Assembly (NCBI GenBank): GCA_017544165.1 | Contig: JAFYER010000009.1 | Span: forward strand, 10,401 to 74,400 | Source of the DNA: Bacilli bacterium | GTDB taxonomy: Bacteria; Bacillota_I; Bacilli_A; RF39; UBA660 | Length of the DNA: 64,000 nt | Direction: 5' to 3' | Part shown: positions 20,163-43,400 of the stretch, piece after piece | How the letters are laid out: every line of letters starts with the position of its first letter | How positions within the stretch are numbered: position 1 is the stretch's first letter | Made by a program: the position numbers and the translations under genes | The notes under the pieces: generated by a model | What the model was told of the DNA's origin: nothing | What the model saw: only the letters and a program-made list of their open reading frames with translations | Databases searched by the model: none

Positions 20163-20213
20163 TTCAATTTTTCAAAATAAGCAATGTCTCTCAATCCCTT
20201 TATTTTCAAGCAC

Positions 20214-20244: not shown

Positions 20245-20263
20245 TTCAGGAGGAAGAGAGCAT

Positions 20264-20815
20264 TTAATATTTTATGCCATCTTGTTTACCAATCATTGAT
20301 TTTTGTAATACTCTTGTTCTTTCTATGTAATCTAATTTATAAACATTAATACCTTTGAAATAATATAAGTAAGCTTCAACTGCTTTTTCATGATCATATT
20401 GACTTCTATTACCTTTTAGTATTTGTAAAGCTTCTTCTTCAGTTGGCTTAAATGTTGCAAATAATTTAACAATATCCGAGGATGATGAGTGTGACATTAT
20501 ATCAATTATTTCTTCTCTTGAAAGAAATTTTATTATTTGAATATCACTTACACTATACATACCATAATAAGGTTCTGCCCAAGTTTCGTCTTCACTTAAA
20601 ACATAATCCCCACTTCCAATAACATAGGCGACATCGATATCATTAGGATCAAAATATCTAAATACATCGCTTAAATGAACACACATATGAAAACCATTAC
20701 CATTATTGCCAAAAGAAATAGGTCCATCTATATGATAGTTTTTTCCCTCTTCGAAGAGCATTCCATACCTATTTGTTCTATTTTTATTAAACGCTTTATA
20801 ACCCATTATCTCCAT
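20264..20815 (-). CDS. Hypothetical protein with a phage-type GYK...GFHxC domain
   Basis: GYKAFNKN...FEEGKNY...GNGFHMCVHLSDVFRYF resembles a domain common in phage proteins. Confidence 0.55.
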   Translation of the reverse strand: MEIMGYKAFNKNRTNRYGMLFEEGKNYHIDGPISFGNNGNGFHMCVHLSDVFRYFDPNDIDVAYVIGSGDYVLSEDETWAEPYYGMYSVSDIQIIKFLSREEIIDIMSHSSSSDIVKLFATFKPTEEEALQILKGNRSQYDHEKAVEAYLYYFKGINVYKLDYIERTRVLQKSMIGKQDGIKY

Positions 20816-20870
20816 ATGATTCCCCCATATTAATTATAACATGTTTTTTAGTACAACTTAAAAACAGTAT

Positions 20871-21809
20871 TTAACCTAATGGCCAACCAATAAAAGAAAC
20901 TATTTTTTTATATTTAGTTATGAAATCTTCTATTTCTTTTTTATTAATTATGATAATGTTTTTGTTTTTTTCATATTTACCATATTGATTTATATTTGAA
21001 AAGAAATAAAACTTATTCTTTGTGTAAATATTTTTATAATTTAAATCGCCTATGTTTATAGGGCCTTTTTTAATTTGAACGTATGCTAAGCTTCCATCAT
21101 TTCTTGAAAAAAGTACACACTCTTGAGTCTTTGTTGATTTTTTACAAGTACTAGAATAAATACCATAATTCTTTTTTATCTGTAAGTATAATATTATTAA
21201 TTCTTCTAATTGATCAGGTTTTATATTACTCCACATATCATTAATATTTTTTACTTGATCAACTTTATAATAATTCTTATTTGTTAATTTATTATATAGT
21301 GCTTTAGAAAAATTTGTTGTTACATCTCTGTTTTTTTGGATTTTGCAAATAGTTCCAACATTGAAGGAATCAACAATATCACCATTTACTTTTTCTTCGG
21401 TCCCCACCTCTAATATTTCACATTTTATACCATGCCAAATGTCATAATTATCATGTTCTTTTTGCTCTTCTGGAGACATTTCATTTCTAATATAATCAAC
21501 CTTATTGCCTAATACTCTACACAAATAATAAATGCTACCGCTTCTAGTCCATATTAAATCATCTTTCTTAATTTCAAAATAAGCTTTTAACACTTTTTTG
21601 AAGCTACTACTATTCCAATTAGGTTTGAATGAAATATGTTCATTAACTATTTTATTAATATCATGATTCGAATTACCAATATTATATTTAGTTTCCCAAC
21701 CAATTCCCAAAATGTTTTTAGATTTGCAATAATTAAACGTTAATACTTGTTTATCTTTACTTTCATGAGTATGAATATTAATTCACCATAATACTATATT
21801 ATCTTTCAT
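20871..21809 (-). pseudogene. Restriction-endonuclease-like (Mrr/PD-(D/E)XK) gene with in-frame TGA at codon 9
   Basis: RBS AGGAG plus ATG 21809 gives MKDNIVIW*INIHTHESKDKQVLTFNYCKSKNILGIGW..., continuous with the 279-aa ORF; C-terminal PDQLEELI...ECVL...YVQIK. Confidence 0.65.
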
Positions 21810-21939: not shown

Positions 21940-22314
21940 TTAATCATAAATTCCTTCTTCGAATTCAGAGCGATCTAGAATTCTAATATTTTTTTCAAGA
22001 GCTTTATCTTTAATCTTTTGTTTGACATAAAAGTTAGTTACTATAATACCATGGGCTACATCTTCTTTTTCCATATCTTTAAACGTTTCTTCGATTTGTT
22101 TTTCAGTAATTTCAGTGTTCAAATATGATTGAACAGTATACTTAACACCATCTTTAGCTACTCTTTGATCATTATCATTTGTTTTATCACTATCTGCAAG
22201 TCTTACATCATCGATAGTGATAGGATTATAATGATGTTTATAAAACATCGTGTTAATATAATTTCTAAATTCCCTTTCATCCATATAATTGTCTACTATT
22301 TTAATTTCTTCCAT
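21940..22314 (-). CDS. Stand-alone Mrr_cat-like restriction endonuclease domain (degenerate active site)
   Basis: MDEREF...D..VAKDGVKYTVQSY...GIIVTN...A..NIRILDR follows the Mrr fold pattern; QxK is replaced by QSY. Confidence 0.6.
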   Translation of the reverse strand: MEEIKIVDNYMDEREFRNYINTMFYKHHYNPITIDDVRLADSDKTNDNDQRVAKDGVKYTVQSYLNTEITEKQIEETFKDMEKEDVAHGIIVTNFYVKQKIKDKALEKNIRILDRSEFEEGIYD

Positions 22315-26969: not shown

Positions 26970-28076
26970 TTATTGATCTAGTGTAAAGCCTATATTAAAT
27001 GTAATATTTGCACCAGACGCAGAAGTATCACAGTCAATATCTTGACCCTCAATCCATAAGTATACACGAATTTTTGTAATACCTGCGCTTAATGATAAAC
27101 CAATACTAACTGGTGTTGGAGCAGGAGTCCCTGTATTTGTTGTGAAAGCTGCTGTTGTTCTAGTTAAGTAGTTACCAGTCATCGCTGTAAAATAACTACC
27201 ACTATCATGAGCATTAGTATTTGCCCAAGCAATTTCATTTGAATCAGATATTGCGGCTGATACACCATCCCATGATACCCAATCATTACCAGTACCCTCG
27301 CTTAATGATGTATAATCAGCACCTGAAGTTGATCCATATGTATAATCTTGATAATATTGACGAGCTTGTTCAATACCAAATGCGTTGTGTTGATCGGAGT
27401 TTGGTTCTACTATTAACACACTAGTTCCTCCGGAATATGCAGCCAACGTTGCTGCTGGAGTTGTTGCGGCACCATTACCTTCTACAATGAATCCCATTCT
27501 AACAGCGTTTTGTGCACCTTTATCAGCATTGTTCCCAGTTACTATTGCACCAGACCCAACATTTAAGTATACCGGTCCAGCTTCATCAACTTTTAAGAAA
27601 ATATCAAATGCAATGAAATCGCCAGTAGTAGTTGATTTAGCTTCAGCTGGTGTTGCCGAAGCAGTTAAGCCTAGAACACCATCAGTATTCTTATCATCGA
27701 TAACACCTTTATACATAACAAGCTTTCCACCTGAAACGGCACCCGCTGTTGATACAGGGCTTAAGTTTGTTAATGAAAATTGATTTTGATCGACTAAATC
27801 ATTAACACTATCATTATCCGTATCAAATGCATAACCTGTTGTTATATCGCTATTAGATATTAATGTTTTCCAAGAGTTTGCATCCGTAGATATTTGAATA
27901 CCATTACTGGTAGATACTGTTACGTTAATTGCATCAATTGTAACACTTCTATTAGCGGTAAACCATGCATAGGTTGATGTTGCTAATAAAATAATTGTTA
28001 AGAACAGTAATAACAGCAATGATCCTAATTTTCTTCTCTTCTTTCCATTTTTCTTTCTAGAACTCATTTCCTTCAC
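26970..28076 (-). CDS. SipW-type-signal surface protein (candidate major TasA-like fibre subunit)
   Basis: Basic N-terminus, hydrophobic helix, then STYA/WF; Thr/Ser/Gly-rich beta sequence; C-terminal YLWIEGQDIDC. Confidence 0.7.
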   Translation of the reverse strand: MKEMSSRKKNGKKRRKLGSLLLLLFLTIILLATSTYAWFTANRSVTIDAINVTVSTSNGIQISTDANSWKTLISNSDITTGYAFDTDNDSVNDLVDQNQFSLTNLSPVSTAGAVSGGKLVMYKGVIDDKNTDGVLGLTASATPAEAKSTTTGDFIAFDIFLKVDEAGPVYLNVGSGAIVTGNNADKGAQNAVRMGFIVEGNGAATTPAATLAAYSGGTSVLIVEPNSDQHNAFGIEQARQYYQDYTYGSTSGADYTSLSEGTGNDWVSWDGVSAAISDSNEIAWANTNAHDSGSYFTAMTGNYLTRTTAAFTTNTGTPAPTPVSIGLSLSAGITKIRVYLWIEGQDIDCDTSASGANITFNIGFTLDQ

Positions 28077-28087: not shown

Positions 28088-28795
28088 CTATCTTGTATTA
28101 ACGTGTTCCTCAGTAACCTTCATATGCATTTTTATTTGGCCACCAATTAATGCATCAATGCAATCAGGGTCATCACCTTCAATCCATATGACTACAGTTA
28201 CTTTGTCAAATTCGCCGGGTGCTAAATTTTTTCTAACTTCTCTTATTACAGTACCATCTTTTTCCTGTAGAAAACCTTCCGTATCCTTTTCAGGTTTTCC
28301 ATCAAGATGATTCACTTTGGCATATATTTTTCGCTCATCGTTAACAATAATCATTACCCGAATTGCCTCATCGACATCTCTAACAACGTCATCTGAATAC
28401 ATTTCATACCAGTAATTAAACACGGTATCGCTTTGATTTTCGACGTAAAATGTATATGCTATATAATTATCTCCATTATGTGACCCTTCCGCCTCTTCAT
28501 CGATATTCTTAGGAATCCAATCTATAGATATATTATCCATGAATTGAAGATTCTCGGCTTTCAATCTTCTTTTAGGCGTTGGATCTTTTTGAGATTCATA
28601 AATAGCCATACCACTTTCTAGTTGTTCATTATCTCTTATGCTTACATAAAAGCTACCATTATTGATTCTAAATTCTAGAACAATATAGATAACAAACAAA
28701 ATCATCAGCAATAATAATACTGATAGTTTAAGCCTTTTGCCAAAGCTTTGCCACCACTTTATCTTCGAGGCAGTTACAATGACATCTTTAGCCAT
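28088..28795 (-). CDS. Membrane-anchored paralogue of 26970..28076 (candidate fibre anchor)
   Basis: N-terminal TM without the TYAxF motif; shares C-terminal VIWIEGDDPDC and AIRVMII/AVRMGFI motifs. Confidence 0.65.
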   Translation of the reverse strand: MAKDVIVTASKIKWWQSFGKRLKLSVLLLLMILFVIYIVLEFRINNGSFYVSIRDNEQLESGMAIYESQKDPTPKRRLKAENLQFMDNISIDWIPKNIDEEAEGSHNGDNYIAYTFYVENQSDTVFNYWYEMYSDDVVRDVDEAIRVMIIVNDERKIYAKVNHLDGKPEKDTEGFLQEKDGTVIREVRKNLAPGEFDKVTVVIWIEGDDPDCIDALIGGQIKMHMKVTEEHVNTR

Positions 28796-29023: not shown

Positions 29024-29602
29024 ATGAGATACGGCAGAAAAATTGTTGTTTTTGCAGCATTAATCGCATTATTTTATTGTGTCTCAATAATAGAGTCCAC
29101 TTATGCTAAGTATTTAACAACTGCAGTAGGAACTGCAAACATGACATTTGCAAGATGGAATATTTTAGTAAATTCACAAGATGTTATTAATAATTCTAAC
29201 TTCAGTTCTACTATCCAACCAGATTTTACAGGAACTGCTAATATTGCTTCAGGAGTAATTGCTCCGACAGCTCAAGGTTCATTTGATATTGAGCTTGATA
29301 TGACTGAAGTTGACGTTTCCCTAGATTATACTGTATCTGCTGCTCTATCAAGCAGCAATACAGTTACCGATTTAAGAATTCTAAGTTATACAATTGATAA
29401 TGTTACTACTCAATATAATGGTAGTTTTACAAATAGATTGCTTGTAAATGCTGTTAATAGAACAGTTACTATAACATTTAATGTCGAATGGGTTGAAGAT
29501 CTTCAAGATGGTGCGATAATGAATAATGCTGCAGATACAGCAGCAGCCACAAATGGTGTTGCTGCCATCGATGTAAGCGTAAACTTTGTACAAGTAAGAT
29601 AA
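29024..29602 (+). CDS. SipW-type-signal TasA/CalY-like subunit
   Basis: RBS AAGGAGGAG; STYA/KY, ARWNILVN, GVIAPTAQGSFDIELD. Confidence 0.75.
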   Translation: MRYGRKIVVFAALIALFYCVSIIESTYAKYLTTAVGTANMTFARWNILVNSQDVINNSNFSSTIQPDFTGTANIASGVIAPTAQGSFDIELDMTEVDVSLDYTVSAALSSSNTVTDLRILSYTIDNVTTQYNGSFTNRLLVNAVNRTVTITFNVEWVEDLQDGAIMNNAADTAAATNGVAAIDVSVNFVQVR

Positions 29603-29634
29603 AAAAAATAATGGTCTATTTCCATTATTTTTTT
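29601..29634. terminator. Bidirectional terminator
   Basis: AAAAAATAATGG-N7-CCATTATTTTTT between convergent stops. Confidence 0.75.
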
Positions 29635-30310
29635 ATGCGCTTTGATTAACATATACTTTAACTGTTAATGTGATGCCTGGGTCTGTAGGATTTGTACTAT
29701 AGTATGTATAAGCTTCTTTTCCCCAATAAGTATCCGCATCATCATCTCCCGACTCATATGGCCAGTGGACAGTTACCGTAAAATTTGATGTGCTTGTAGC
29801 ATTATTGATAATTTCTGATAATGAAGCGCTTGATAAGGCAAAAGTTATTGTAAAAGGATAGTCGGTTGCTAACTTTGTCTCTAATTGGGCTGATGTTAAA
29901 TCATCTTGCTCTATCTGCTCACCGGCATCTGTCCTTCCCTCCTCGGTTACATAAGTATCGCTAAATATTCTTGCCTCCAAAATTTTATATGTAATATCGG
30001 CCGCAACTTCACTCGCATTTTCTATTGTTAATGTATCTGTATAATCGGTCATTCCTGGATAAACTGATGAGACACTAACACTAAAATAGTCAGATACCGA
30101 TGTTTGACCAGATTGAAATAATACATTCCAAGCTCTTACATGAACATCAATACTAGTTGAAACTTTGCTAGAATATACAAACCAAGCATAAGTATTTCCT
30201 ACAAGTAGTATTATCAAAAACACTATTTGATGAGGTTTTAAAATCTTTTTTAAGTTTTTAAGAATTATCCGTAGCTTTTTCTTCTTCATCGCCATCTTCC
30301 TCGTCTTCAA
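29633..30310 (-). CDS. SipW-type-signal TasA/CalY-like subunit
   Basis: NTYA/WF, RAWNVLF, VYPG, C-terminal HWPYESGDDDADT. Confidence 0.75.
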   Translation of the reverse strand: MKTRKMAMKKKKLRIILKNLKKILKPHQIVFLIILLVGNTYAWFVYSSKVSTSIDVHVRAWNVLFQSGQTSVSDYFSVSVSSVYPGMTDYTDTLTIENASEVAADITYKILEARIFSDTYVTEEGRTDAGEQIEQDDLTSAQLETKLATDYPFTITFALSSASLSEIINNATSTSNFTVTVHWPYESGDDDADTYWGKEAYTYYSTNPTDPGITLTVKVYVNQSA

Positions 30311-30854
30311 ATTGAATTTTTACGATTTGATAAGATGCAAATAAGCCAACTATTGTAAATAAAGCATAATATGAATAAATATTACTCATGAGTCTACCAA
30401 AGTAGCTGAATACTACAGTTTTATAAACAACTTTACCATATATTTGTGAATAAGCTATTTCCGGATCTTCAACTTCATTTGAGGTTCCCTTAGTTACATA
30501 ATAATAATCATTATTATCTTTTCTTATTGAAACGATTTTATGGGTAATTATTAATCCATTTAAATTGCTTTTTTGGCCAATATATGTAACATTATCGCCA
30601 ACTTTTAATTTGGAAGCCTCTTCTTCTTTGATAATGATAATATCCCCGATTGAATATTCATCTTTCATAGATTCAGATGCAACGCTAAATACTCGATAAC
30701 CCATAATTGCTTTGTTATTAAAAAACTTTTGAATTAAAACAACAGCTAAAGCAATTGCTAAAAAAATAGAAAATAAAACTTTTACTATTTTACAAAAAAT
30801 ATATAAAGCTTTATTATTTTCAATCTTTGACTTGATTTCTTTTAATTTTTTCAT
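30258..30854 (-). CDS. sipW: Signal peptidase I, SipW/ER type
   Basis: VASESM (Ser), GDIII, ITHKIV (His), YVTKGTSNEVED; TM helices at both ends. Confidence 0.85.
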   Translation of the reverse strand: MKKLKEIKSKIENNKALYIFCKIVKVLFSIFLAIALAVVLIQKFFNNKAIMGYRVFSVASESMKDEYSIGDIIIIKEEEASKLKVGDNVTYIGQKSNLNGLIITHKIVSIRKDNNDYYYVTKGTSNEVEDPEIAYSQIYGKVVYKTVVFSYFGRLMSNIYSYYALFTIVGLFASYQIVKIQFEDEEDGDEEEKATDNS

Positions 30855-30856
30855 TT

Positions 30857-31987
30857 TTAACTCCTAAAATCAAAGGTAACTATTCTACTAATAGCACTTT
30901 GAATCTTAACATTGATTTTTTGTTGAATCTCCTCAAGTGAAGCTTCCTTTTTATTCCTAATAACAGCTATTCTGTCACCAATAATCTTTTGTAATTCTTC
31001 CATCGGCAAATCAGAGTTAAGTTCAACAATTTTTGTTATCATATTATTCGTTAAATTTTCAACAACTTCCCTATTCTTTTCAGATTTTAATTGCTCCTTA
31101 TTTTCGCCGAGGCTATTAACAATTAAATAGTTAAGTAAGAAAACATCATCAAACATTGCTTTAACTTTAACATTTTCTTTTATTGTGGAACTACTCTTAG
31201 TAGTCTTATTACCATTATCGATATAAGTTTGCAAGAAATCCCATAACTTCATTGCATATTGAAAGTTGGTATTTTTTAAAATTAAGTTTGTTTTCTTAAT
31301 TGGCGGAATTACTCTTGCAACATTGGCTTTATCAAGCATTTTATATACATCAGTTCTTGTTAAATCAGAAATTTGTAATTCAAGTTTATCAATTCTTTGT
31401 TCAACAGACAAATCGTTATTTCTTCCATACTCCGAAGTAACATTTGACCTTGAAGCAAGAGAAACATTAATATCAACTGTTTCAGAACCTACTCTTGAAG
31501 AACCGTGATACTCACTTTTTTTAGTATCCTTAGTAAAAGATTTTGTTACTAAGTCCCTTTTTCGCATAGAAATAAAAAGTTGCATGTTTTTTATAAGAGT
31601 ATATATTAACCTATTTTCATAAGTATTATAGTTTTCATCTTTGTTGATATTTAATATTTTTGAAGGCTTAACATCGCCATTTTTTTCAATTTTTTGTATC
31701 ATACTGGTGTTTCTAGCTAGATGTTTGATACTTTCAACGGTTACTCTTCTTGCTTTTTCAATATTTACTACTTCTTCTTCGTTAATGATAAAACGATTGG
31801 GATTTCGTAAAATATTATCAATATATACAATGGTTTCTTCCATAAGTTCAAGCCACTCAAAATTTGTTTCAAATGACTCAACATTGGTACTAACAGTAAA
31901 CTCTGAACGAACACTATTATTAAAAGAATTGATTTTATTTGTACTAGTCTTGGTATATAAATCTAATACCTTTAATTCGTTATTCAT
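30857..31987 (-). CDS. DUF2357/McrC-like protein lacking an evident nuclease domain
   Basis: ESIKHLAR, ENYNTYENRLIYTLI, KKTNLILKNTNFQYAMKLW follow the DUF2357 pattern; the helical C-terminus has no PD-(D/E)XK motif. Confidence 0.7.
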   Translation of the reverse strand: MNNELKVLDLYTKTSTNKINSFNNSVRSEFTVSTNVESFETNFEWLELMEETIVYIDNILRNPNRFIINEEEVVNIEKARRVTVESIKHLARNTSMIQKIEKNGDVKPSKILNINKDENYNTYENRLIYTLIKNMQLFISMRKRDLVTKSFTKDTKKSEYHGSSRVGSETVDINVSLASRSNVTSEYGRNNDLSVEQRIDKLELQISDLTRTDVYKMLDKANVARVIPPIKKTNLILKNTNFQYAMKLWDFLQTYIDNGNKTTKSSSTIKENVKVKAMFDDVFLLNYLIVNSLGENKEQLKSEKNREVVENLTNNMITKIVELNSDLPMEELQKIIGDRIAVIRNKKEASLEEIQQKINVKIQSAISRIVTFDFRS

Positions 31988-31997
31988 TGTTTACTCC

Positions 31998-33533
31998 CTA
32001 AGACATTTTCTTAAGTCTTAAAAGAGTTTCAATGCATTCGTGCATTTTGTCTTTACCGAATGTTTTATCCAAAAATTCAATAAAACCATCGATTTCATCT
32101 CTTATATAGGAAATATTTAATTGTTCAAATTTTCTTAAAATCTTTTTAGCAATGAAATAATCTACACCATCAATTTCATCGCCGCCGCAGGCTACATAAA
32201 CCGGAACAAACTTTCTCATATGGGCAACAATACGGTTACCAAACGCGATTCTGAAATGTGATATTACATAATCATCCATTTCATTGATTTTATTTAAAGT
32301 ATCTTCCTTAATTGGATTTGCATCCATTGCTTCTTTAAACTTCTTATTTAAATATGTAAAGTTAACATCTTGTGCCTCGGTATCTTCTGGGGTAAATACT
32401 TTACCTTTATCGTTAATATCAATTGGCATAGCCCGGTCATAAACCTTATCAGTTACGGCAAATGTTGAGTCATCGTTATTGATTGTTCCAATATACCAAA
32501 CGTTTTCAGGAATTTTGATTTTACCATTGATAAGTCGTTTAGGATCACTCTTCCAAGAAGATGCAACAACTTCAATAATCCATTCATCTTTATTAGGCAT
32601 TTCAAGAATAGATAACATTTCCGCAAAATAATACTCAACTCTGGAAATGTTCATTTCATCAAGTATTACTGTATAAATATCATCGGTATAACCAGCTTCA
32701 TACAAAACTTTTAAAATATCCGTTTCATTAAATTTCTTAGTAAATTCGTTAAAATATCCGAAAAGCTCAGATCTATCACGCCAAGATGGTTGAACTGAAG
32801 CAACACAAGAATCATGTTTTAAAAACTTTCCCCATGCATAAGCAAGTGAAGTTTTACCTGTTCCAGAAATACCTTGTAGAATAACAAGTTTTGTACTAGC
32901 AAGGGCTGCAACATATAATCTAATCATATCAGTTGTATAATATAATCCTAATTTACTTGCGGCGAAATTTCTAAATAATTCAACAAATTCTGGTAATTCA
33001 AAAGAATTGCCATATTCTTGAATTTTATAATCAGCATAAGCTATATCAACATCATTAAGTTTAGAAAATCTAATATCAGTAGTTTGATCAACTGAAGATT
33101 CTCCCTCTTGCCCTTCAACTTCTTCAGTTTCATTTTCAGTAGGTTTTAATCCTAAATGGGATACTTTCATTGCTAGAATCTCTTCTTTTTCTTGGACTAA
33201 AGAAGCAACTTTATTATTTAAGGTTGATATTTCGGCAAGCATAGATTCTTGCTCTACTAATGTCTTTCTAAAACGAATATATTTTCTCAATAAAAAGATA
33301 ATTAAAAGAACAAATGCCACTATTAAAGCAATAAGTATCGCAGCAGCAATACCAAATAATATCCATTCTCCAATACCAAAATCTGATTTATAATTACCAA
33401 CAATTTTTAAATATTGTTTAATGCCAAACATCTTAGCAATTCCATTAATAATTCCTAAAATAATAGCCTTAATACCAGAGAAAAATTGAGCTAAAAATTC
33501 ATATAAAAATGTAAAAAATGTATTCATATACAC
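31998..33533 (-). CDS. McrB-like AAA+ GTPase with N-terminal membrane helices
   Basis: GISGTGKT, VQPSWRDRSELFGYFN, ILDEMN.SRVEYYFA, signature GTINNDDST, DKVYDRA; TM segment WILFGIAAAILIALIVAFVLLIIFLL plus a coiled coil. Confidence 0.85.
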   Translation of the reverse strand: MYMNTFFTFLYEFLAQFFSGIKAIILGIINGIAKMFGIKQYLKIVGNYKSDFGIGEWILFGIAAAILIALIVAFVLLIIFLLRKYIRFRKTLVEQESMLAEISTLNNKVASLVQEKEEILAMKVSHLGLKPTENETEEVEGQEGESSVDQTTDIRFSKLNDVDIAYADYKIQEYGNSFELPEFVELFRNFAASKLGLYYTTDMIRLYVAALASTKLVILQGISGTGKTSLAYAWGKFLKHDSCVASVQPSWRDRSELFGYFNEFTKKFNETDILKVLYEAGYTDDIYTVILDEMNISRVEYYFAEMLSILEMPNKDEWIIEVVASSWKSDPKRLINGKIKIPENVWYIGTINNDDSTFAVTDKVYDRAMPIDINDKGKVFTPEDTEAQDVNFTYLNKKFKEAMDANPIKEDTLNKINEMDDYVISHFRIAFGNRIVAHMRKFVPVYVACGGDEIDGVDYFIAKKILRKFEQLNISYIRDEIDGFIEFLDKTFGKDKMHECIETLLRLKKMS

Positions 33534-33534
33534 C

Positions 33535-34494
33535 TCATTGACTAATTATTTTTGTATTTATATTATCCTTATTCTCTATTACTATATCATAATATTCATA
33601 TTTTTCATATATAAAAACATAAGAAAATATATCTAATATTTTCAAATTTTCATCGTAAGTTTCATCAAGCACAATAGCAACATTAAATCCATTGTTGATA
33701 AATGTGTTGATTTTATCCTTATTTTTCATATAAGTTGCATAATTAAATCTAAAATGAACTCTAGGTTTAACAACCTTATTATCAAGCACTTTAGTATATT
33801 TATTAATTTTCTTTTCTTTAGCAAATAAAGATTCAGGAAAATCAACAATGTATTGCTCACTAAAATTTAATTCAATTGTATTTTTTAAAATATAACCAGA
33901 AAGCATTAAATATAATAAATATTGCTTGTTTTCCAAAACAGTGCCACTATTATAAGCTTTATCGATAGCCCAATCACTATATATCGGAGATAATTTACAA
34001 TTTTGTTTAATCTCCACTTTTTTAACATTTCTAGCAACTCTTTTTAAATCAATATTAAAATTTTTATCTTCGTAAATTGCAAAGAAATCTTTTCTAGCTT
34101 TAATAAAATCACTGATTGCACTTTTTAATTCTTCTTGTTTCTCACTTGTTAGGTTTATATCATCTCCAATTGTTTTAATAAGTGAATTTAAACTGTCATA
34201 CTCACTGCAATCATCAATATATAAAATGTACCCAAATAAAGTAAAAATCTCTTTTACTTCATTTTCTAGAGCACTTTCTTCATTAATTATTCCTTTTGCA
34301 ACATTTTTAAGTTCAGCATTTAACTTATTAATAAAACTATAACCCCTACTATAAACACTATTATTGTAATATCTTACATCAACGTATTTTTCAATAAAGG
34401 GCATTAATAATTTTTTATCATAACCATTACCTAGAATAATTCGGTAGTAATTTAATAAAAAACTTTCAAAATATTTTATATAATTTTCTATCAT
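33535..34494 (-). CDS. Hypothetical protein, C-terminal half resembling a degenerate EAL domain
   Basis: YIVDFPESLF...PRVHFRFNY...FINNGFNVAIVLDE...LDIFSYVFI parallels the EAL beta/alpha pattern (svNls...rlvlEitE...G..iAlDDFG...vd.iKiD) with catalytic residues lost. Confidence 0.45.
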   Translation of the reverse strand: MIENYIKYFESFLLNYYRIILGNGYDKKLLMPFIEKYVDVRYYNNSVYSRGYSFINKLNAELKNVAKGIINEESALENEVKEIFTLFGYILYIDDCSEYDSLNSLIKTIGDDINLTSEKQEELKSAISDFIKARKDFFAIYEDKNFNIDLKRVARNVKKVEIKQNCKLSPIYSDWAIDKAYNSGTVLENKQYLLYLMLSGYILKNTIELNFSEQYIVDFPESLFAKEKKINKYTKVLDNKVVKPRVHFRFNYATYMKNKDKINTFINNGFNVAIVLDETYDENLKILDIFSYVFIYEKYEYYDIVIENKDNINTKIISQ

Positions 34495-34502: not shown

Positions 34503-35435
34503 CTATAAAGCATTAAATGTAATTATCGACGGATCATTTTCATGCGGGAACGTATAATTTTGTGAAACATCCAACTTGTAAAATCTAATAACATTACTAC
34601 TCATCGGATCGACATCAAACGTGATTGATGATATATAGGCTACACCATTAACAGTAGTAGTTGTATATGTCGCAGAATTAAGTAAATTGCTCGTTGTGTC
34701 GATAATGACATCTGTTGGATCAAATGTTAATGTTATCCTAGCTGAATAACATTTTGCCTTCTCCGCTGCGCTTAAAGCCATATATTCATCAACTGTAAAA
34801 GAATGATTAAGCTCATAAGTTCCAAAAGCCTCACCAGCAATATAATTATCTCTAGCATTTGTTATTGTCATATTTAAATAAGGTCTATTAATTTCGTCTT
34901 CAATATCATAAGAAATGCCTTGTCTTCCTACAGTTATTACATAATATGCTTTTAATTCTTTGACATATGGAGCTGATGAAGTAGCCGTAACAGTAATTGT
35001 TACAGATTCCCCAGAGTTAAATACCCTTTGAGGTGTAATAATAGCTTCATAACTATCAGTCATTTCATCAGTATAAATAGTTCCTGATACAGTAGTTATT
35101 GTACTAGTAACACCAGTCGGAGTTTGAACAGTTACTGTATAATCAATATCACTAGCACTAACTAAAAGATTATTCTTATGGTTATTTAAAGAAAATTGAA
35201 TTTTAAAATTACTTACACCACTCCAATTATTGGCATGATATGTAATCGCAGGACTAGCAAGCTTATCACTGCTGAAGTAAAAGTCATTCATTTCAATTAA
35301 ATAATCACCAATAAAGTCATGAACATATTTTGAAAAAGTTATTCCCACAGGAATAAGCATTAATAATATAAACATTATTAACAAAAGTTTTATTCTTTTT
35401 CTTATATTAAACTTAAATGCCTTTTTATTTATCAT
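34503..35435 (-). CDS. SipW-type-signal surface protein (two-domain minor subunit)
   Basis: Basic N-terminus, hydrophobic helix, ITFS/KY, FYFSSDKL; Thr-rich beta sequence. Confidence 0.7.
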   Translation of the reverse strand: MINKKAFKFNIRKRIKLLLIMFILLMLIPVGITFSKYVHDFIGDYLIEMNDFYFSSDKLASPAITYHANNWSGVSNFKIQFSLNNHKNNLLVSASDIDYTVTVQTPTGVTSTITTVSGTIYTDEMTDSYEAIITPQRVFNSGESVTITVTATSSAPYVKELKAYYVITVGRQGISYDIEDEINRPYLNMTITNARDNYIAGEAFGTYELNHSFTVDEYMALSAAEKAKCYSARITLTFDPTDVIIDTTSNLLNSATYTTTTVNGVAYISSITFDVDPMSSNVIRFYKLDVSQNYTFPHENDPSIITFNAL

Positions 35436-35471: not shown

Positions 35472-36068
35472 TTAAACAACTTGTTCTGCAGTAATAATTA
35501 CACTTAATAACTCAATTTTTCCTTGATAATCATCAGGAAAATCTTTATACGCTATAGGATATTCAACAACAATTATATAATAGTCTTGTTCATTTGCTGT
35601 GTAATGAAATTGATAATCTTGGGTTGTATTATAATCTTTGTAATAAACATCATCATCAGTTCGATAACTTGATGATGTTATAATATTTGTCGCATTGGCG
35701 CTATAAGGCTCGTTGCGAAGAAGTTTAATATTTATTGGTAAATTAGTAGTCGTTTCTATTGTGACATGATAAGATAAATCAACTTGCGTGCGCATAGTTT
35801 GATTGAAATTTTTAACGTCAACACGAAATCTATATGGTTCTACGGAAGGTTCTAAGCCCTCGAGCGCAATTGAACCACTATAAGATCCTTGCTCAACCAA
35901 AAAAACTGCAATACTTGATTGAATATCCATATTAGCTACTGATTGATATCTTGAATATGAGATATCAACAAGATTTACTATTAAAAGGACACACAAAACC
36001 AAAATTGTTAATTTAAGAGCAATTCCAAATCTTTTTCTATCAAATTTTGCTAGAAACTTTCCTTTCAT
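35472..36068 (-). CDS. SipW-type-signal TasA-like subunit
   Basis: ISYS/RYQS after a hydrophobic helix; GLEP; C-terminal IITAEQVV. Confidence 0.7.
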   Translation of the reverse strand: MKGKFLAKFDRKRFGIALKLTILVLCVLLIVNLVDISYSRYQSVANMDIQSSIAVFLVEQGSYSGSIALEGLEPSVEPYRFRVDVKNFNQTMRTQVDLSYHVTIETTTNLPINIKLLRNEPYSANATNIITSSSYRTDDDVYYKDYNTTQDYQFHYTANEQDYYIIVVEYPIAYKDFPDDYQGKIELLSVIITAEQVV

Positions 36069-36796
36069 TGTTTATCCTTATCTAATTTTGACTTAATCTC
36101 TTTTTGAATACTAGCTAAATCTAAACCGATTGTATATTCCAATTCTTTTTTTTCTTCGTCGTTTTTAACGGAAACAACCTTTTCATAAATTGCTTTGAGT
36201 TCATCTTTACTTATCTTATTAATATCAATTTTATCTTTAGATTCTTCTTTTGATACTTTTGTTAATTTTGCTATTTTTGGTAATTTTGATTCTTTTGGTT
36301 CCTTTTTCTCTTTTTTGAATCCTTTATATGAAAAAGCAAAATCGAATAAAATTAGCGTTAGAAAAATCAATATAATAACTTTTGGCGAAGTTAGTATTTT
36401 TTGCCAAATGCCCGCATCAGCATAAACTTTAACTACTTTTCCAAGTACCGCATTTTTATTAATCGCTAAATCATTAGCGTTATTTGCATCACCTTTAGTT
36501 ATAATATTATTGTCATTTATTGTAACAACTCTATGAGTAATATATGAACCATCTTTTTCAAATGTAATAATATCATCAACATCGTATTTAACATTCATTT
36601 GAACAACAATGATATCATTTTGTTTAATTGTTGGTTCCATACTTCCGGTAGCAACATTAAATACAGAATATCCAAACACTTCAAAATAATCTTTTTTACT
36701 AATCATCATTTTTACTTTGGCAAATATCATAATTGCTAAAAGTACAAAGACGCATATAGTTAAAACATTAATAATGATTTCTGCTACCTTTCTCAT
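36065..36796 (-). CDS. sipW: Signal peptidase I, SipW/ER type, with charged cytoplasmic C-terminal tail
   Basis: VATGSMEPTI (Ser), DDIITF, ITHRVV (His), TKGDANNAND. Confidence 0.92.
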   Translation of the reverse strand: MRKVAEIIINVLTICVFVLLAIMIFAKVKMMISKKDYFEVFGYSVFNVATGSMEPTIKQNDIIVVQMNVKYDVDDIITFEKDGSYITHRVVTINDNNIITKGDANNANDLAINKNAVLGKVVKVYADAGIWQKILTSPKVIILIFLTLILFDFAFSYKGFKKEKKEPKESKLPKIAKLTKVSKEESKDKIDINKISKDELKAIYEKVVSVKNDEEKKELEYTIGLDLASIQKEIKSKLDKDKQ

Positions 36797-36813: not shown

Positions 36814-37425
36814 TTATTCTCCTACATATGGTACTATCGTTTCTCCTAAATACTGTACAACCGTAATTTCGGCTGGTATAGTTATATTATTGTTGGGCGT
36901 TAATCCAAGCTCAGTATCATGTTCATCATAAGCACTATTATCAAGCCATTCAACCACAATTCTAAGCGTCGCAACATCCCCATTTTCAATTTCTGATAAA
37001 TCAAGCACACCGGAATATGTACTTTCTCCTGTCCTAATTGCTGAACCATTATTGGTGTCTACATAGTATGTAATATTATCGCCATAATCTTCTTCCATAT
37101 CAAGTGTTATATCATATCTAATAGAAACATCTGATCCATCAGGGTCGATGATAACTTCAAAATAACCTGATCTACCAGGAGCAATTACGCCATTTGCAAT
37201 ATGTGAACTATTACTATATGTAAAATTATTGGCATTAAAACTGATTGTTTCTCCCGATGATATATCGACACTATTTAATCTAATTACCCAACTTCCAATA
37301 TCGAGGTTGGCAGTACCATTAGTAATCGTTTCATAAACTGCATATGTCGATGAGACACAATATATAAGTGCCATCGCAACAACAAATAGTACTATATATA
37401 ATATTATTTTTACTCTAGATTTCAT
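36814..37425 (-). CDS. SipW-type-signal TasA/CalY-like subunit
   Basis: STYA/VY, GSWVIRLN, GVIAPGRSGYFEVIID; clear paralogue of 29024..29602. Confidence 0.75.
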   Translation of the reverse strand: MKSRVKIILYIVLFVVAMALIYCVSSTYAVYETITNGTANLDIGSWVIRLNSVDISSGETISFNANNFTYSNSSHIANGVIAPGRSGYFEVIIDPDGSDVSIRYDITLDMEEDYGDNITYYVDTNNGSAIRTGESTYSGVLDLSEIENGDVATLRIVVEWLDNSAYDEHDTELGLTPNNNITIPAEITVVQYLGETIVPYVGE

Positions 37426-37985
37426 TAATCATCGTTTTCTTCAGCTTCAGCTAATTCTTTAGCTGATTTCTTCTTTACTTCAACGGCAATAGTATATACT
37501 TCATAAACAAAAGCATAAAGTGTTGGTAATATTATTAAGAACATAAAGCCCCATCTAGATTCTAATAATCCTAGTAAAAGTCCTAATTTTTTAATTCTAA
37601 GTGCGCCATTAGCAAGTCCTAATATATCGCCATATGAAACTTTGTCATCCGCAAAATAGAATGAATCTTCTGCACCATCGGCTCTTTCCGCTCTTTCGAT
37701 GATACTATAGTTTATAAAACTTTTAGTTTCTATATTACCAGCAGAGTAAAATACGCCACTGCCTTCCGTATATTCTTTTTCTAACCCTTTTGTGACGATG
37801 ATAATATCGTGTTTATTAAAACCAAACTCCTCTAAGGAACGATTGTCGACTATAAATAATGATGTATCACCAAATTCACTAATACCATATTCGTTTGACG
37901 AAAGCAAACAAACTGTTGTAAATATAGCAATTATAACCCAAATTCCTATAAGAATTTCCTTAAAAAAGTTTATTATACTCTTCAT
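37425..37985 (-). CDS. Degenerate SipW-like signal peptidase paralogue
   Basis: Same topology as SipW (TM, FGDTSLFIVDNRSL, HDIIIV, C-terminal GFMFLIILP TM) but the ITHR and TKGD motifs are missing. Confidence 0.6.
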   Translation of the reverse strand: MKSIINFFKEILIGIWVIIAIFTTVCLLSSNEYGISEFGDTSLFIVDNRSLEEFGFNKHDIIIVTKGLEKEYTEGSGVFYSAGNIETKSFINYSIIERAERADGAEDSFYFADDKVSYGDILGLANGALRIKKLGLLLGLLESRWGFMFLIILPTLYAFVYEVYTIAVEVKKKSAKELAEAEENDD

Positions 37986-38050: not shown

Positions 38051-38827
38051 TTAGTTCTTTTTCTTTAATTTACCCGTATCTTCATTTAATTTTTTGACAT
38101 TAATTTCGCCAAAGCCGACTTCAATTATTGAATCGCGAAGAATATCTGCTTTTTTAATATTAATATCGCCAAAATCATTATTGATATTGATATATTTTTT
38201 TACATAATCGACATTCATATCAAGCAATGTACTATTTGAAAATAAATTATCTACTTCATCAATTTTTAGTCTTCCCCAAAAACTATAAATATATGCATTT
38301 GCGACTTTTCCAATATTAATACTTCCCCTTCGTGATTTTACTTTTACTACTTTTGCTTCTTTAACACTTATATTTCCAAGTTTACTTGTAATAGCCATCG
38401 TAGTATTTGGAAAGTTTTCAATATTAATATGGCCATGTCTATTACTTATCGTCATATAATCTTTAAAAGTACTTGGAGCAGTTATCTCAATTACATTCAT
38501 TTTGCAAAAAAAGCATCCTTCATAGTTTTCAACTTTCATCGATAATTTCCCATTATATGCTTTTAATTGAATGTTTTTACGATTAGATAATACTTTAACT
38601 TTTATAGTATCTTCATTACCATTTTTTATATTGATAATAGCATTATCGACATCAATATATATTGTATCAATATCTTCATATTTTTCATTATAAAGTTTAG
38701 TGCTACTTTTCTTACCAAAAAACATTTTATTAGTAAAATGAAAAGGTTTATAATTATTAATTATTCCAAGAATAATAAGTATAATTATTATAATTATGGA
38801 AAGTATTATAATTATTCTTTTCTTCAT
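38051..38827 (-). CDS. DUF4097-like beta-strand-repeat membrane-anchored protein
   Basis: N-terminal TM; repeated S..G.I.I motifs (RHGHINI, KLGNISV, RRGSINI, DFGDINI). Confidence 0.7.
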   Translation of the reverse strand: MKKRIIIILSIIIIIILIILGIINNYKPFHFTNKMFFGKKSSTKLYNEKYEDIDTIYIDVDNAIINIKNGNEDTIKVKVLSNRKNIQLKAYNGKLSMKVENYEGCFFCKMNVIEITAPSTFKDYMTISNRHGHINIENFPNTTMAITSKLGNISVKEAKVVKVKSRRGSINIGKVANAYIYSFWGRLKIDEVDNLFSNSTLLDMNVDYVKKYININNDFGDINIKKADILRDSIIEVGFGEINVKKLNEDTGKLKKKN

Positions 38828-38828: not shown

Positions 38829-40310
38829 CTACTTTTCTTTCATTTGATTGACATACATAATAAATTCCAATTCTTCGGTGTTAATTTTATTGTTAATAAT
38901 ATCATAACTTAATATTACATTATCTAAATTTTTTAGATATGAATCAACAGTATCCTCAGTTATTTTATCTTCCCCTATGTTGATGTTGACTAAACGATAA
39001 CGATCACTTATTATCTGTGGAATATTTTTATCTTCTGTAATGCTAATATTATTAATAATATTTAAGTCATTACAATAAACAAATTTAAATAATTCGATGA
39101 TGTTGTTATTAATGTCATTCATTGAAATAATATCATTTTGTTCTTTAAGAAGTTTTACAAAATAATTGAAATTAGCACTTGCTATCATCAAAAGATTATA
39201 ATAGCTTGTATCATTATTAACACTAGTAAAAATTGTATCATTTATTTTTAAATCATCTAACTCGCGATATAATCTATATAATTCAATGATACAATTATTT
39301 CTCATGAGCTTTGTATCACTACTAGAAAATCTAGAATTAATTTTTCGATTTAATTTGAATAATTCCTTTTCTTTTTTTGAAATCTCTTTAAATTTATTAT
39401 TATAAACGCCTTTATATTCTTGTTTATGTTCAAATAACTTTTTTAGATTGTCAATAATGTAAATAAAACGCATTAAATACTTGTATTCAAATAATGAATC
39501 TTTTAATTTTAGTAAATTATAATGATTAGCTTCATCCTCTTTTAAAAATAGTTCAGATGTTATAGATTTAATATTTTTTTCTGATACATCTGTAAGTAAT
39601 ACAGTTTTATTCAAAATAAGTGAGGAAATATATTTAATACTTGTATGATTATATTTATCAATAGCAGTATGATTATCTTTATATTGATTTATTATATCTT
39701 CAAAAGAAGATTTTTTCTTTTTAAAATATCCATCAATCTTCTTCTTATATTTAAAATATAAATATCGAAAATTCAACTCAATTTGATTGATTAAATTAGG
39801 ATTTTCCCAGTATAGCATTTCAAAAACTTGATGAATATCTTCTTTTTTTCCTAATAATGAACCCATATATTTACTAACTACTTCAGTATAATTAAAATCT
39901 TCGATAGTAAGAGTAATACCGACTTTTTCAAAAGAGTCGATTAATGTAAAAATGACTTCATTTGTTTTATCAAGATCTTCCTTATAATAATGACCGATTT
40001 CATAGATATAATAAGGTAAATTCATTCTTTCATAACTATCAAAAAAACTGTTATTGAATTTTAAAGATAATATATCAATTTTTTCATCAATTTTTAAATC
40101 AGTCCCTGTTGTATATTTTTCAACATATTTGTTATATCTAGCATCTAGTTCATCTGTTATTTGTTTTAATTTTTGATTAAAATCCGCAAGTTGTAAATCA
40201 ATGTACTTAATATATTCAGCCTTATTTTTTTTAGTATCAGTAGGAAGAATAGAAAGATTGTTATTAATGGCGTCAATTGATTTTTGAATATCATTTATCA
40301 TTTGAAACAC
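38829..40310 (-). CDS. Hypothetical helical/coiled-coil cytoplasmic protein (likely start ATG 40301)
   Basis: 493-aa ORF coupled to its neighbours; no family recognised. Confidence 0.7.
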   Translation of the reverse strand: MFQMINDIQKSIDAINNNLSILPTDTKKNKAEYIKYIDLQLADFNQKLKQITDELDARYNKYVEKYTTGTDLKIDEKIDILSLKFNNSFFDSYERMNLPYYIYEIGHYYKEDLDKTNEVIFTLIDSFEKVGITLTIEDFNYTEVVSKYMGSLLGKKEDIHQVFEMLYWENPNLINQIELNFRYLYFKYKKKIDGYFKKKKSSFEDIINQYKDNHTAIDKYNHTSIKYISSLILNKTVLLTDVSEKNIKSITSELFLKEDEANHYNLLKLKDSLFEYKYLMRFIYIIDNLKKLFEHKQEYKGVYNNKFKEISKKEKELFKLNRKINSRFSSSDTKLMRNNCIIELYRLYRELDDLKINDTIFTSVNNDTSYYNLLMIASANFNYFVKLLKEQNDIISMNDINNNIIELFKFVYCNDLNIINNISITEDKNIPQIISDRYRLVNINIGEDKITEDTVDSYLKNLDNVILSYDIINNKINTEELEFIMYVNQMKEK

Positions 40311-40407: not shown

Positions 40408-43400
40408 CTACTTAATTATTATATATTTTTCTACAGTTCCTATCAATGAATTATTATCATATAACATAAACTGCATCATGTAAGTTCCCGGTGTTAAATC
40501 ATCATTCATGCTAAGTACTAAGGTTGTCGTTTCTGCAGGGCTGCTTACAATCAAATATTCATTTGCATTAGCGGTTATTTGTAAAGTATTACTTACATAA
40601 TCCGCTAAATCTACTACTGAATAATTTGTTGAACCAACGACCGAATATGATGATCTTCTATACATTTTAAGTCTAATAGATGGATTAGTTAATCCTGAAT
40701 TATAACCTATAGTGTATGTCACATTATTACTATTATTTAATGTATATCCGGTTTCTTTGTAAACAATCATATCTTCATTAGCTACATCGACATCTAGTCC
40801 GTAGATTTCATTTATAATAGATATATTGAAATCAACATAATCGGATGTGTTAAGACCATAATAGATACCATCTGGCGAACCAAATGATTCAACTCTTAAT
40901 ACATAATTACCGGTTGCTAGATTAGATGTTCCCGTTTTAACTTTAACCCATGTTTCGATGTTACCTACCCGTTCAGAAATTTTAATTCTCGTCGTTCCAT
41001 CGATATTTGGTGAATAATCAACACCATCTATTTCATATGTTAAACCAAGTAGTGCAACCCCGGATACAACTTGATTATTTTTAAACAAAGTTAATTTTAA
41101 ACCGACTTTTTGATCGAACATGTGGGTATCATTGATAACAATACCTGCGACTTGTGATTGGGTATAATTAGTTTGTAAATCCATTGTTACTGTTTCACCA
41201 CTATAGATAGTATCGCTACTGATTGTTCCACTAATGTCAATGACCGCGTCAAGTCCATCATAGATATCGTAGTGCATTCCACCTTCTTGAATACCTAAAA
41301 CACTGACCATTGTTTGATCATTGCCATTTTGAAGTTCAAACAAAATATAATTATCAAGTGAATCATCTGCAAATTCCGTATCTTCAAAATCGATAATAAA
41401 AATAAACTCTTCCTGGCAATAACCACCTGTCTGTGAATAATAAAGTGAATTCATCTGGGAATCATTATAATGAACGCCACTATTAAATGCTCCCATTACT
41501 TCAAACATTGACAAATCATAGTTAGCTTCATTATGGAAAGAAATTTGACTTTCCGCCGCAGCCACATCTGCAGCTGTTATAACATGATAATAGTACTTCG
41601 CTTCATTTAAGCTTAAATCAATCATTGTTATTTTTGTATTTTCGGGTAAAGCAATGTTTGATACTAATGCTCTATGATATCCATTACCATAAATACTTTG
41701 TCCTTGTGAAAACAATGAAAAATAGGCACTTATCGAAGACTTAGAAGTTATTTTAGTTGTTGTCGGTGTAAATAAATCATATTTTCTACCTGCTGTTAAA
41801 GCAGCTTCATAATCATTTGTCGCAATTAAAATTCGTGAAATATTAACATTAATTATTAACGTTTCAGGATCTGATGTTAAATCATCTATACGGCTAGTAA
41901 CACTAACTTCTATTTGTATTGTTCCAAGCGAACCAGTTGTTTGTAAGTTTTTAGAATGGTATAAGTAAAATAATAGTGAAGGTACATTTGTACTATTTTC
42001 ACCAATATAATATCTTAAGCCCTGAATTTGTGGGGTTGTCGTATTATAAAATGATGTTTGACCTGCTGTTAACCAACCTGTGTTACTTGTTTCCATTGAA
42101 AGTCCCATAGTTGTATCAACTGTTGATAAATTCGATGAAATCTTTGGAATCGAGTTTTTATTAACTATTTGTACGCCGCTTTCAAGCCCAGTAAAGTCAA
42201 CCCTTGTTATTTCAAAAGTTGTATTTGGCACAGTGTAGTCAATTAATGGAAGCTCAACAGCACCCATTGTTGAATATTTAGATGCAACAAGATTTACTTC
42301 ATAAGTTTGAACGTATTGACCAATAATCCACATATACATTGGAGAATCAGCAGGTGTAGGTTCTATTATTTTAATTGTATTAATACCTTCTTCATCGACA
42401 AAATTGCTATAAAAACCATCAGCCGTAATGTCATGATCATTTTTATGAGCACCTAATACATAAGAACCCGTTGTAAATAACCCGCTATTTAAATCGACAT
42501 GAGCTCCATAAGCATAATCATCATAAATACCTACTACTATTGAATTGTTAGCGCCATATTTAAATAATCCAAAGAATGTCATTCCTTCGACATCACCATA
42601 TGTTGTTAGTGTTTCATTAGCAATATTCAATACTTTATTATTGGCGCCATACATATAGATACGATTATCAGCATCTCTTGTAAATGTACCAAGTTCATCA
42701 TTGATAGTTATTGTAACTGGATCACCATTTGCTTGTAAACTTTTATAACTTCTAAGCTCATTTGCTCCTGTTTCAAGGAATAGTGTCGAATTATTCTTTA
42801 AATCCATTTCATCAATAATTGATAAGGTAAATAATACGTCACTATATTCGTTTGTTCTATCAGTTGCACCACTTAAAGTAAATGCTGAATTATCAATTAC
42901 TAATAGATTAGTTCTTTGAATAGATATATTATGTTTAGGATTTGCAAACGTTCCATAATTTTTAATATTTATTGTACTTGTTCCTGTTGTTGTTGAGGCA
43001 TTACCACTTCCAAAGATTGAGCCCTCAATAATGAAATTATTATAATTTAAGGCATTTATATTAACATATATAGCTTCTGTTACACCGACGAAGTGCCAGT
43101 CATAGTTTTCAGATCCTGAAGCATTTGCTTCACCACCACCAAAGACTGTACCGTGAATTAGAACATTACCCCTAGTTGATTCAGAAGTGGTTGCAACATC
43201 TGCACCAATATTAACACTTGTTCCACCATAAACAACAGAAGTATTAGCTCCACCATAGATATTTCCATAAATGGTTGCTCCCAATATTTTTACATTTGAT
43301 TGAGAAGTATTTAATGTTGAATCTCCGGTAAAGGCCGCATTTCCTCCGCCAAATAGTGAACATTGTGATTTAATAACACAATTGGCAGTTCCAATCGTAG

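Follow-up and report, generated by a model that had tools for sequence, protein, structure and literature searches.

The 64,000-nucleotide stretch of contig JAFYER010000009.1 analysed here (GCA_017544165.1; hereafter the window, with a guanine-plus-cytosine (GC) content of ~28%) comes from a genome of ~1.05 Mb that is 88% complete, close relatives of which are labelled as Bacilli, Mollicutes/Tenericutes or Erysipelotrichaceae metagenome-assembled genomes from guts and rumens. It contains a minus-strand gene cluster, running from 26970 to at least 37985, which is built around a membrane-anchored AAA+ GTPase of the McrB family and a McrC-like protein (Table 1). Alongside this pair, the cluster encodes two SipW-type signal peptidases, one degenerate paralog of these, seven proteins with an N-terminal hydrophobic region and a cytoplasmic protein of 319 amino acids (aa). 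An initial annotation of this DNA had interpreted the pair as a restriction motor that now serves the membrane in some way other than DNA cutting, such as subunit export, remodelling or signalling; both of its open reading frames (ORFs) were recovered intact, on the minus strand and at the positions given there.

The GTPase, 511 aa long as annotated, comprises a hydrophobic helix (residues 5–38), a transmembrane (TM) helix (57–82), a charged helical linker (88–126), an acidic linker (127–152), an AAA+ core (~195–401) and a helical lid (402–511). Its relatives measure 506–509 aa and begin at residue 3, an invariant methionine, so that translation probably begins from the ATG at 33527, which would give a protein of 509 aa. 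The Walker A (GISGTGKTS, 221–229) and Walker B (VILDEMN, 289–295) motifs are intact, as first annotated, and the DKVYDRA region was likewise found (362–368); across 29 diverse relatives, residues G221, G224, G226, K227, T228, D292, N352, D354, S356, T357 and R367 are invariant. The signature GTINNDDST (349–357) had been taken for the NxxD form typical of McrB, a reading that did not survive alignment: over 150 representatives the pattern is G-T-x-N-x-D-[D/E/Q]-S-T, with the conserved Asp in the third position, and the resemblance to NxxD arises because a second D follows the NxD. Judged by this motif, the GTPase belongs to the NxD variant branch, in which NxD is strictly conserved and is usually followed by E or a second D (Bell et al. 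2024, eLife 13:RP94800, PMC11090510).

The relationship to McrB itself is clear over the core, where E. coli McrB (6hz4_A) aligns gap-free with GTPase residues 197–374, a stretch that includes both the signature and the arginine region (E 4.7e-5). The match to the NCBIfam McrB model is weak (2.5e-6), and because its 26.5 bits stand against a cut-off of 637, the protein is not the McrB equivalog defined there. Searches of residues 1–190 against Pfam and NCBIfam found no domain, DNA-binding or other; this stretch is made up of the hydrophobic helices, of which the one at ~57–82 is the single strong TM helix (Kyte-Doolittle 3.5) and the one at 5–38 is weaker, followed by the charged helix and the acidic linker, with 8 D/E vs 1 K/R. 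The TM prediction proposed in the initial annotation thus bears out its account of the N-terminus, in which membrane helices, a coiled coil and an acidic linker replace the DNA-recognition domain, in all but the coiled coil, to which we return below. In a tree of 132 representative AAA+ domains, the window GTPase falls within a split of 37 rows (Shimodaira–Hasegawa-like approximate likelihood ratio test (SH-aLRT) 98), 36 of which have one or two TM helices. This split lies apart from a clade with at least three TM helices and from the TM-less proteins of CoCoNuT length, the comparison for which the initial annotation had suggested a phylogeny. The former clade is itself well supported (39 rows, SH-aLRT 98) and represents another membrane form, consisting of NxD McrB-like GTPases (P0166–P0253) of 550–840 aa with a polytopic N-terminal domain of at least three TM helices.

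The partner matches DUF2357 over residues 16–157 (4.8e-9) and carries the TYENR motif at 122–126, in agreement with the initial annotation, which had also described a helical C-terminal end devoid of a nuclease. All 38 members of the McrC-like family match DUF2357 and none of the 38 matches a nuclease family of Pfam; moreover, the family alignment contains no invariant acidic residue beyond E124. When the family profile was compared with PDB sequences, no McrC and no nuclease were recovered, the sole match being a designed helical protein. In the AlphaFold2 model (predicted local distance difference test (pLDDT) 75.2), the chain forms helices, a long beta-hairpin (149–186) and a short hairpin (261–270), and then helices alone from 273 to 372. 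Foldseek found nothing at E <= 0.001 in PDB with this model, while the top two matches of the wide VIA fold search are McrC chains, namely 6ut5_G (Z 7.4, root-mean-square deviation (rmsd) 5.3, 127 aligned) and 6hz4_M (Z 7.3, rmsd 5.8, 139 aligned); both are confined to model residues 41–259, and their middling Z values are tied with those of unrelated helical proteins. A string at residue 280 that fits a PD-(D/E)xK-like regular expression was rejected, because its columns are not conserved and it is helical in the model. A nuclease fold in the C-terminal part of this protein, named beforehand in the initial annotation as a finding that would speak against its view, was sought by Pfam, profile, Foldseek and VIA searches, and none was found. 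From the model of the whole protein, the partner is predicted to consist of a McrC N-domain and a helical tail, with no sign of a PD-(D/E)xK fold. Its relatives in Clostridia are longer, at about 677–853 aa, with 300–450 extra residues that give coiled-coil-type matches and no TM helix.

We then asked how these genes are arranged elsewhere, using the best 80 loci drawn from at least 593 species genomes with a GTPase relative; the counts out of 80 and the median identities below refer to these loci. The McrC-like gene lies directly downstream of the GTPase gene in 78 of the 80, and both misses fall at contig ends. SipW-family ORFs were recorded in 79 of the loci and members of an exported family in 76. 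Since all three associations are this regular, the pair is not a stray defence module; the adjacency of GTPase and McrC-like genes and the association with SipW and exported proteins are obligate. Six genomes, with GTPase identities as low as 60%, preserve the order of the genes, and a synteny of 10–14 genes is stable across related loci. The GTPase is by far the best conserved product of the cluster, with a median identity of 65% to its window counterpart vs 28–47% for every other cluster gene, as would fit a conserved motor with fast-evolving surface parts. These observations also bear on the idea that the pair is a decayed McrBC restriction system that came to lie beside a secretion operon by chance. 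The loss of the DNA-binding and nuclease domains is what decay would produce, but the catalytic residues are all invariant, the frames are open at full length throughout, and the genes are tightly spaced, with 7–10 nucleotides (nt) between the genes for the 319-aa protein, the GTPase and the McrC-like protein and 2 nt between the last of these and the SipW gene. The counts of synteny and conservation already contradict this explanation, to which we give almost no credence. The initial proposal of a restriction motor reused at the membrane is instead supported by the synteny and the missing nuclease, together with the predicted contact and the gene fusions described below.

Table 1. Genes of the cluster and their positions in the window
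Feature	Position	Strand	Basis and remarks
Membrane-anchored McrB-family AAA+ GTPase, NxD branch	31998..33533	-	Motifs, alignment, TM helix, clade placement
McrC-like partner, 376 aa	30857..31987	-	DUF2357 N-domain; helical C-terminal part 273–372
319-aa cytoplasmic protein, proposed adaptor between McrC-like protein and SipW	33535..34494	-	Predicted binding; SipW fusions
SipW-type (archaeal/ER-type) signal peptidase I, 198-aa family	30258..30854	-	TIGR02228 2.7e-20; catalytic Ser and His kept
SipW-type signal peptidase I, 243-aa family	36065..36796	-	Pfam, NCBIfam; second TM helix and charged cytoplasmic tail
Degenerate SipW paralog, 186-aa family	37425..37985	-	Tyr in the catalytic His column in the window copy
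Exported 368-aa protein	26970..28076	-	Signal region ends STYAWF; beta-rich domain; C-terminal W-x-E-G-Q-D-x-D-C
235-aa membrane-anchored protein	28088..28795	-	No cleavage-type motif; always just upstream of the 368-aa gene
Exported 192-aa protein	29024..29602	+	STYAKY; only plus-strand gene of the cluster
Exported 225-aa protein	29633..30310	-	NTYAWF, hydrophobic region; long basic N-region
Exported 310-aa protein	34503..35435	-	ITFSKY, hydrophobic region
Exported 198-aa protein	35472..36068	-	ISYSRY, hydrophobic region
Exported 203-aa protein	36814..37425	-	STYAVY, hydrophobic region
493-aa cytoplasmic protein	38829..40310	-	With the cluster in 21/80 loci; membership uncertain

Two of the three signal peptidase paralogs keep their catalytic residues. 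The second of them, the 243-aa protein, matches TIGR02228 at 1.2e-20, and the catalytic Ser and His are kept in 43/43 and 42/43 members of its family, respectively, as they are in 69/72 and 70/72 members of the 198-aa family. In the 186-aa family, these residues are found in only 17/63 (Ser) and 14/63 (His) members and, as judged from these columns, the third paralog is dead. SipW-type genes occur in all 21 genomes of the genus, with 4–8 matches in genomes that have the GTPase and 1–3 in those without it; the source genome, of ~1 Mb, has seven SipW-type matches in all. Many genomes of the genus also encode SipW-type domains inside frames of 375–391 aa, about twice the usual length, with an extra domain (for example C6:33890-34264 and C9:4523-4897 in the source genome).

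The proteins on which these peptidases would act share a recognisable signal. In six of the seven exported families, the motif [ST]-[YF]-[AS]-x-[YF] stands right after the hydrophobic region (in 60/71, 39/48, 36/56, 24/41, 16/50 and 13/34 members), as compared with 0/44 members of the 235-aa family and 48 of 845 control ORFs. This motif resembles the signal of TasA that is cleaved by SipW. The 235-aa and 368-aa families have in common a C-terminal WIEGxDxDC strand (hhalign probability 91%, E 1.1e-6, 35 columns). The opposite orientation of the 192-aa gene is kept in nearly all related loci that possess it. Searches of Pfam, NCBIfam and PDB sequences returned no family for the seven exported proteins, nor for the 493-aa protein or a 2988-aa protein encoded further along the window; a look-up of the 368-aa protein in the Atlas gave its own unnamed family and a weak Peptidase_M73 lead (0.85), which was not used.

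For the 368-aa family, a confident model could be obtained (pLDDT 82.6, predicted template-modelling score (pTM) 0.81). Its wide VIA search is dominated by the N-terminal helix, and the fold matches reported here come from the second-look VIA mode, in which the top non-helical match is the TasA fibre 8aur_A (Z 4.9, rmsd 4.3, 139 aligned). It is followed by the Sulfolobus thread 7pnb_A (Z 4.8, rmsd 3.6, 128 aligned) and variants of FimA (Z 4.2–4.6), and lower down by the cannula protein CanA (Z 3.5) and the bundling pilus 7ueg_A (Z 3.0). Subunits of donor-strand fibres recur consistently in this list, but every match in it is weak.

The 319-aa protein, encoded next to the GTPase, is the proposed link between the McrC-like protein and SipW. 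No family was found for the 319-aa protein in Pfam, NCBIfam or PDB-sequence searches, and the Atlas look-up gave its own unnamed family with a weak EAL lead (0.88) that was not used. In a predicted complex, the last helix of the McrC-like protein (347–374) contacts residues 1–8 and 133–197 of the 319-aa protein, with a score of 0.81 compared with 0.01 for the best of three controls; the runs share at least 59% of contacts, and the pLDDT of the partner is at least 85. A score at the mark that we applied is reached by 58 of 80 solved complexes and by 2 of 110 mismatched pairs. Gene fusions point to a second contact, with the peptidase. At locus L011 (genome G030), an 834-aa protein carries the 319-aa domain behind a SipW domain, together with a TM helix and a basic helical linker, and such a fusion lies directly upstream of the GTPase gene in 9 of the 80 loci, which brings the total to 10 loci; the SipW paralog involved corresponds to the 243-aa peptidase of the window. 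In addition, one of the 78 McrC-like genes, a 998-aa frame at locus L095, has its McrC-like domain fused to a long charged coiled coil, a TM helix and a SipW domain in which the GSMEP and THR motifs are retained. The connection of motor to peptidase is thus supported by a predicted interaction and by gene fusions.

Taken as a whole, the cluster in the window matches CoCoPALM, a kind of system that is named in print and is uncharacterised. CoCoPALM appears in a single paragraph of the study cited above, with its analysis deferred to a future paper (Bell et al. 2024, PMC11090510), and our literature searches found no study of the system besides this one and its preprints, whose supplementary file may already list the adaptor or the fusions. 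The operon context, the NxD branch and the match to CoCoPALM, all absent from the initial annotation, make its inference more specific. We consider it reasonably likely that the cluster encodes a CoCoPALM-type motor for fibre or pilus biogenesis, that is, a GTP-driven membrane machine that operates on the cytoplasmic side of the membrane, is coupled to SipW peptidases and assembles a TasA-like surface fibre.

Such a machine might work as follows. By homology with the McrB hexamer, the GTPase of 509/511 aa would form a membrane-tethered ring, into which the McrC-like protein, likewise by homology, would insert via its DUF2357 domain to stimulate GTP hydrolysis. The C-terminal helix of the McrC-like protein is predicted to hold the 319-aa adaptor, and the fusions suggest that a SipW peptidase bears the latter on its cytoplasmic tail. 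GTP-driven motion could then be passed to the peptidase platform, where it would gate or power cleavage of the signal anchors after [ST]-[YF]-[AS]-x-[YF]. Cleaved subunits would be handed to the growing surface fibre and polymerise through their newly exposed N-terminal strand, in the way that TasA polymerises via an N-terminal strand freed by SipW cleavage (PMC9674648). More speculatively, candidate parts of a base or anchor are the 235-aa protein, which would stay uncleaved, and the dead paralog of the peptidases. A stronger version of the proposal holds that this is a new energised class of fibre assembly in monoderm gut bacteria, in which a GTPase ring, a McrC-like shaft and an adaptor are mechanically coupled to SipW, and GTP drives the cleavage-coupled polymerisation, and perhaps the extrusion through the wall, of donor-strand subunits; this we put forward tentatively, as a possibility that falls somewhat short of an even chance.

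The same wiring could serve another end. In a secretion, quality-control or regulatory module, the GTPase ring would control SipW or, like FtsH, clear uncleaved anchors or cleaved signal peptides, and would exert no force on a filament. The architecture of a membrane-tethered AAA+ ring, its links to SipW through the adaptor and the fusions, and the presence of a dead peptidase paralog would suit such a role, and the long basic N-regions of the pre-proteins face the acidic linker of the GTPase. In solved McrBC complexes, however, the pore of the ring is occupied by McrC, so that substrate threading through the pore of the GTPase is unlikely, with the proviso that the fold match to the McrC N-domain is weak here (Z 7.3–7.4); furthermore, Pfam and NCBIfam searches found no protease domain in the GTPase. 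This alternative overlaps with the fibre motor, from which it differs mainly in the use of energy, and we regard it as unlikely, if still worth bearing in mind.

The distribution of the GTPase is relevant to a further alternative. Its relatives number 8452 representative clusters with a threshold of E <= 1e-3, and 760 with one of E <= 1e-30. The GTPase was found in 8 of 21 genomes of the genus and in 10 of 41 genomes searched. Within the order, 93 of 301 genomes have it, representing 53 of 127 genera, and 10 of these 93 carry two full-length copies on different contigs. This patchy occurrence in genus and order would be expected of an anti-phage or conflict system, in which the GTPase would sense an invader at the membrane and trigger a response of the membrane or surface, and the exported proteins would serve as effectors or decoys. 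The NxD branch is common to this GTPase and the CoCoNuT defence candidates, and PADLOC reports a match to its defence candidate PDC-M26A (6.6e-36), but this is confined to residues 195–319 of the AAA+ core. Neither a nuclease nor any other known effector turned up in the pair or elsewhere in the cluster, the conservation of the GTPase is unusually high and the gene order stable, and the fusions join the motor to a signal peptidase rather than to a sensor. We therefore judge a defence role to be rather improbable.

A defence island does lie within the window, at 7.1–21.7 kb. PADLOC identifies it as a phosphorothioation-type island on the minus strand (7162–21710), with matches to SspA (1.5e-34), SspC (5.7e-96) and SspB (1.3e-53), a SspD/BrxP-like 3'-phosphoadenosine-5'-phosphosulfate (PAPS) reductase (5.3e-81 to BrxP), PbeA (3e-240), PbeC (6e-109) and the candidate PDC-S02 (8.3e-58). 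A small Mrr_cat nuclease is encoded near it, at 21940–22314. The island ends ~5 kb from the cluster, and genes for glmS, a hydrolase and a Mur ligase stand in between.

Several points weigh against the fibre motor and should be set beside the evidence for it. The fibre itself is a prediction from genes and models. The ancestry of the GTPase lies in defence systems, to which the PADLOC match and the proximity of the Ssp/Pbe island can be added, and the system is accessory in both genus and order. To our knowledge, Bacillus TasA fibres assemble without a cytoplasmic nucleoside triphosphatase (NTPase), which leaves the need for a motor unexplained. As for the subunits, Foldseek returned no match for the 368-aa model at E <= 0.001 in PDB, the test for a TasA-like fold giving E 0.15, and the VIA Z values, all below 5, may reflect only a common beta-sandwich. 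Peptidase_M73 (PF12389, the TasA/camelysin family) was found nowhere in the locus, and the best match to it in the genome (E 0.029) is on another contig. On the side of the motor, the pTM of the McrC-like model is only 0.50, and the complex predictions were run on our own alignments, so that their calibration is rough. The coiled coil that the initial annotation placed in the GTPase was not confirmed either: residues 88–126 are charged and free of Pro and Gly, and a crude heptad test of this segment was not significant, the observed value being reached by 345 of 2000 shuffles. Finally, expression evidence for the operon is weak and comes from a single metatranscriptome (X20), short contigs of which cover parts of five operon genes, for example 30839–31081 without differences; carry-over of DNA could account for these, and operon stretches that are not covered are uninformative. 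A promoter scan showed no excess (115 sites vs 110.6 expected).

McrBC is the textbook example of a DNA-cutting restriction motor. Its motor, stripped of the DNA-binding and nuclease parts, anchored in the membrane and wired to signal peptidases, would show that an AAA+ GTPase can be turned to tasks at the cell envelope. The system is a common one, being found in at least 593 species genomes and in nearly a third of the examined genomes of an order of ~1-Mb gut and rumen bacteria, and more than 1% of such a genome is devoted to it. Should a surface fibre be its product, the system would probably be a main adhesion or biofilm organelle of a large uncultured group of gut bacteria, and the fibre would be the first of the TasA-like kind with a motor of its own. 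An energised fibre class of the sort proposed above would, if real, add a third solution to those of type IV pili on the one hand and sortase or chaperone-usher pili on the other. From the adaptor contact and the fusions, a concrete and testable wiring diagram can be drawn.

Two further genes in the vicinity were noted. The 2988-aa protein (40408–49374, minus strand) bears a TM or signal helix at its N-terminus, and Pfam returned no family for it even at E <= 1. The GC content of its gene is 0.35–0.38 vs ~0.28 around it, and in 5 of 6 relatives examined a homolog adjoins the cluster, which makes it a possible giant surface protein of the system. Between the cluster and the gene for the 493-aa protein, at 38051–38827 on the minus strand, lies a gene for a DUF4097 (toastrack)/LiaG-like membrane protein (Pfam 1.3e-9; NCBIfam LiaG 1.8e-14, below the cut-off), which, among the relatives, was seen to neighbour the cluster in the closest one (L016) only.

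Comparison with canonical McrBC from E. coli and T. gammatolerans (6hz4, 6ut6, 6ut5) shows the AAA+ core to be shared without gaps, and the DUF2357 partner has McrC chains as its top folds. The window system differs from these in that a membrane anchor replaces the DNA-binding domain, the PD-(D/E)xK nuclease is missing and the signature is NxD; and where stand-alone McrBC consists of two genes, the window pair is embedded in an operon of exported proteins. With CoCoNuT (CnuB/CnuC), it shares the NxD branch of GTPases, and its nearest relatives outside the membrane forms are proteins of 700–870 aa with no TM helices. CoCoNuTs always have HEPN or other nucleases nearby, and their McrC homologs are often nuclease-less (Bell et al. 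2024, PMC11090510). In the window cluster, by contrast, no nuclease family was found among 15 proteins by Pfam, NCBIfam and further searches, and its GTPase falls in a separate split.

The correspondence with CoCoPALM extends to an NxD McrB GTPase with an N-terminal TM helix and helical segment, a nuclease-less McrC homolog, genes of the signal peptidase family and occurrence in Bacillota. CoCoPALM is further defined by a coiled coil on the McrC homolog, where the window protein has a helical tail of ~100 aa and the relatives in Clostridia have long coiled coils, and by a fusion of TM helix and FtsB-like coiled coil, where the TM helix of the window GTPase is clear, the heptad test gave no significant result and Pfam found no match to FtsB/DivIC in the GTPase.

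On the export side, the closest parallel is the tapA-sipW-tasA operon of B. subtilis (PMC9674648), in which a SipW-type peptidase likewise adjoins exported beta-sandwich proteins and the signal ends in aromatic-Ala-x-aromatic; the TasA fibre is also the best fold match of the 368-aa protein. The window differs from this operon in having seven exported paralog families and three peptidase paralogs, and no homology to TasA at the level of sequence. The "Pam" pilus of candidate phyla radiation (CPR) bacteria, described in a preprint whose available part mentions no signal peptidase, AAA protein or GTPase (PMC13278184), is a different system. With the PilB-PilC-PilD machinery of type IV pili as well as type II secretion there is no homology, as the motor here is of the McrB type, the SipW peptidase is a Ser-His enzyme where the prepilin peptidase is an aspartyl one, and beta-rich subunits stand in place of pilins anchored by an alpha-helix; the resemblance is one of analogy only, in that both would combine a hexameric cytoplasmic NTPase and a membrane platform with a dedicated leader peptidase acting on membrane-anchored subunits.

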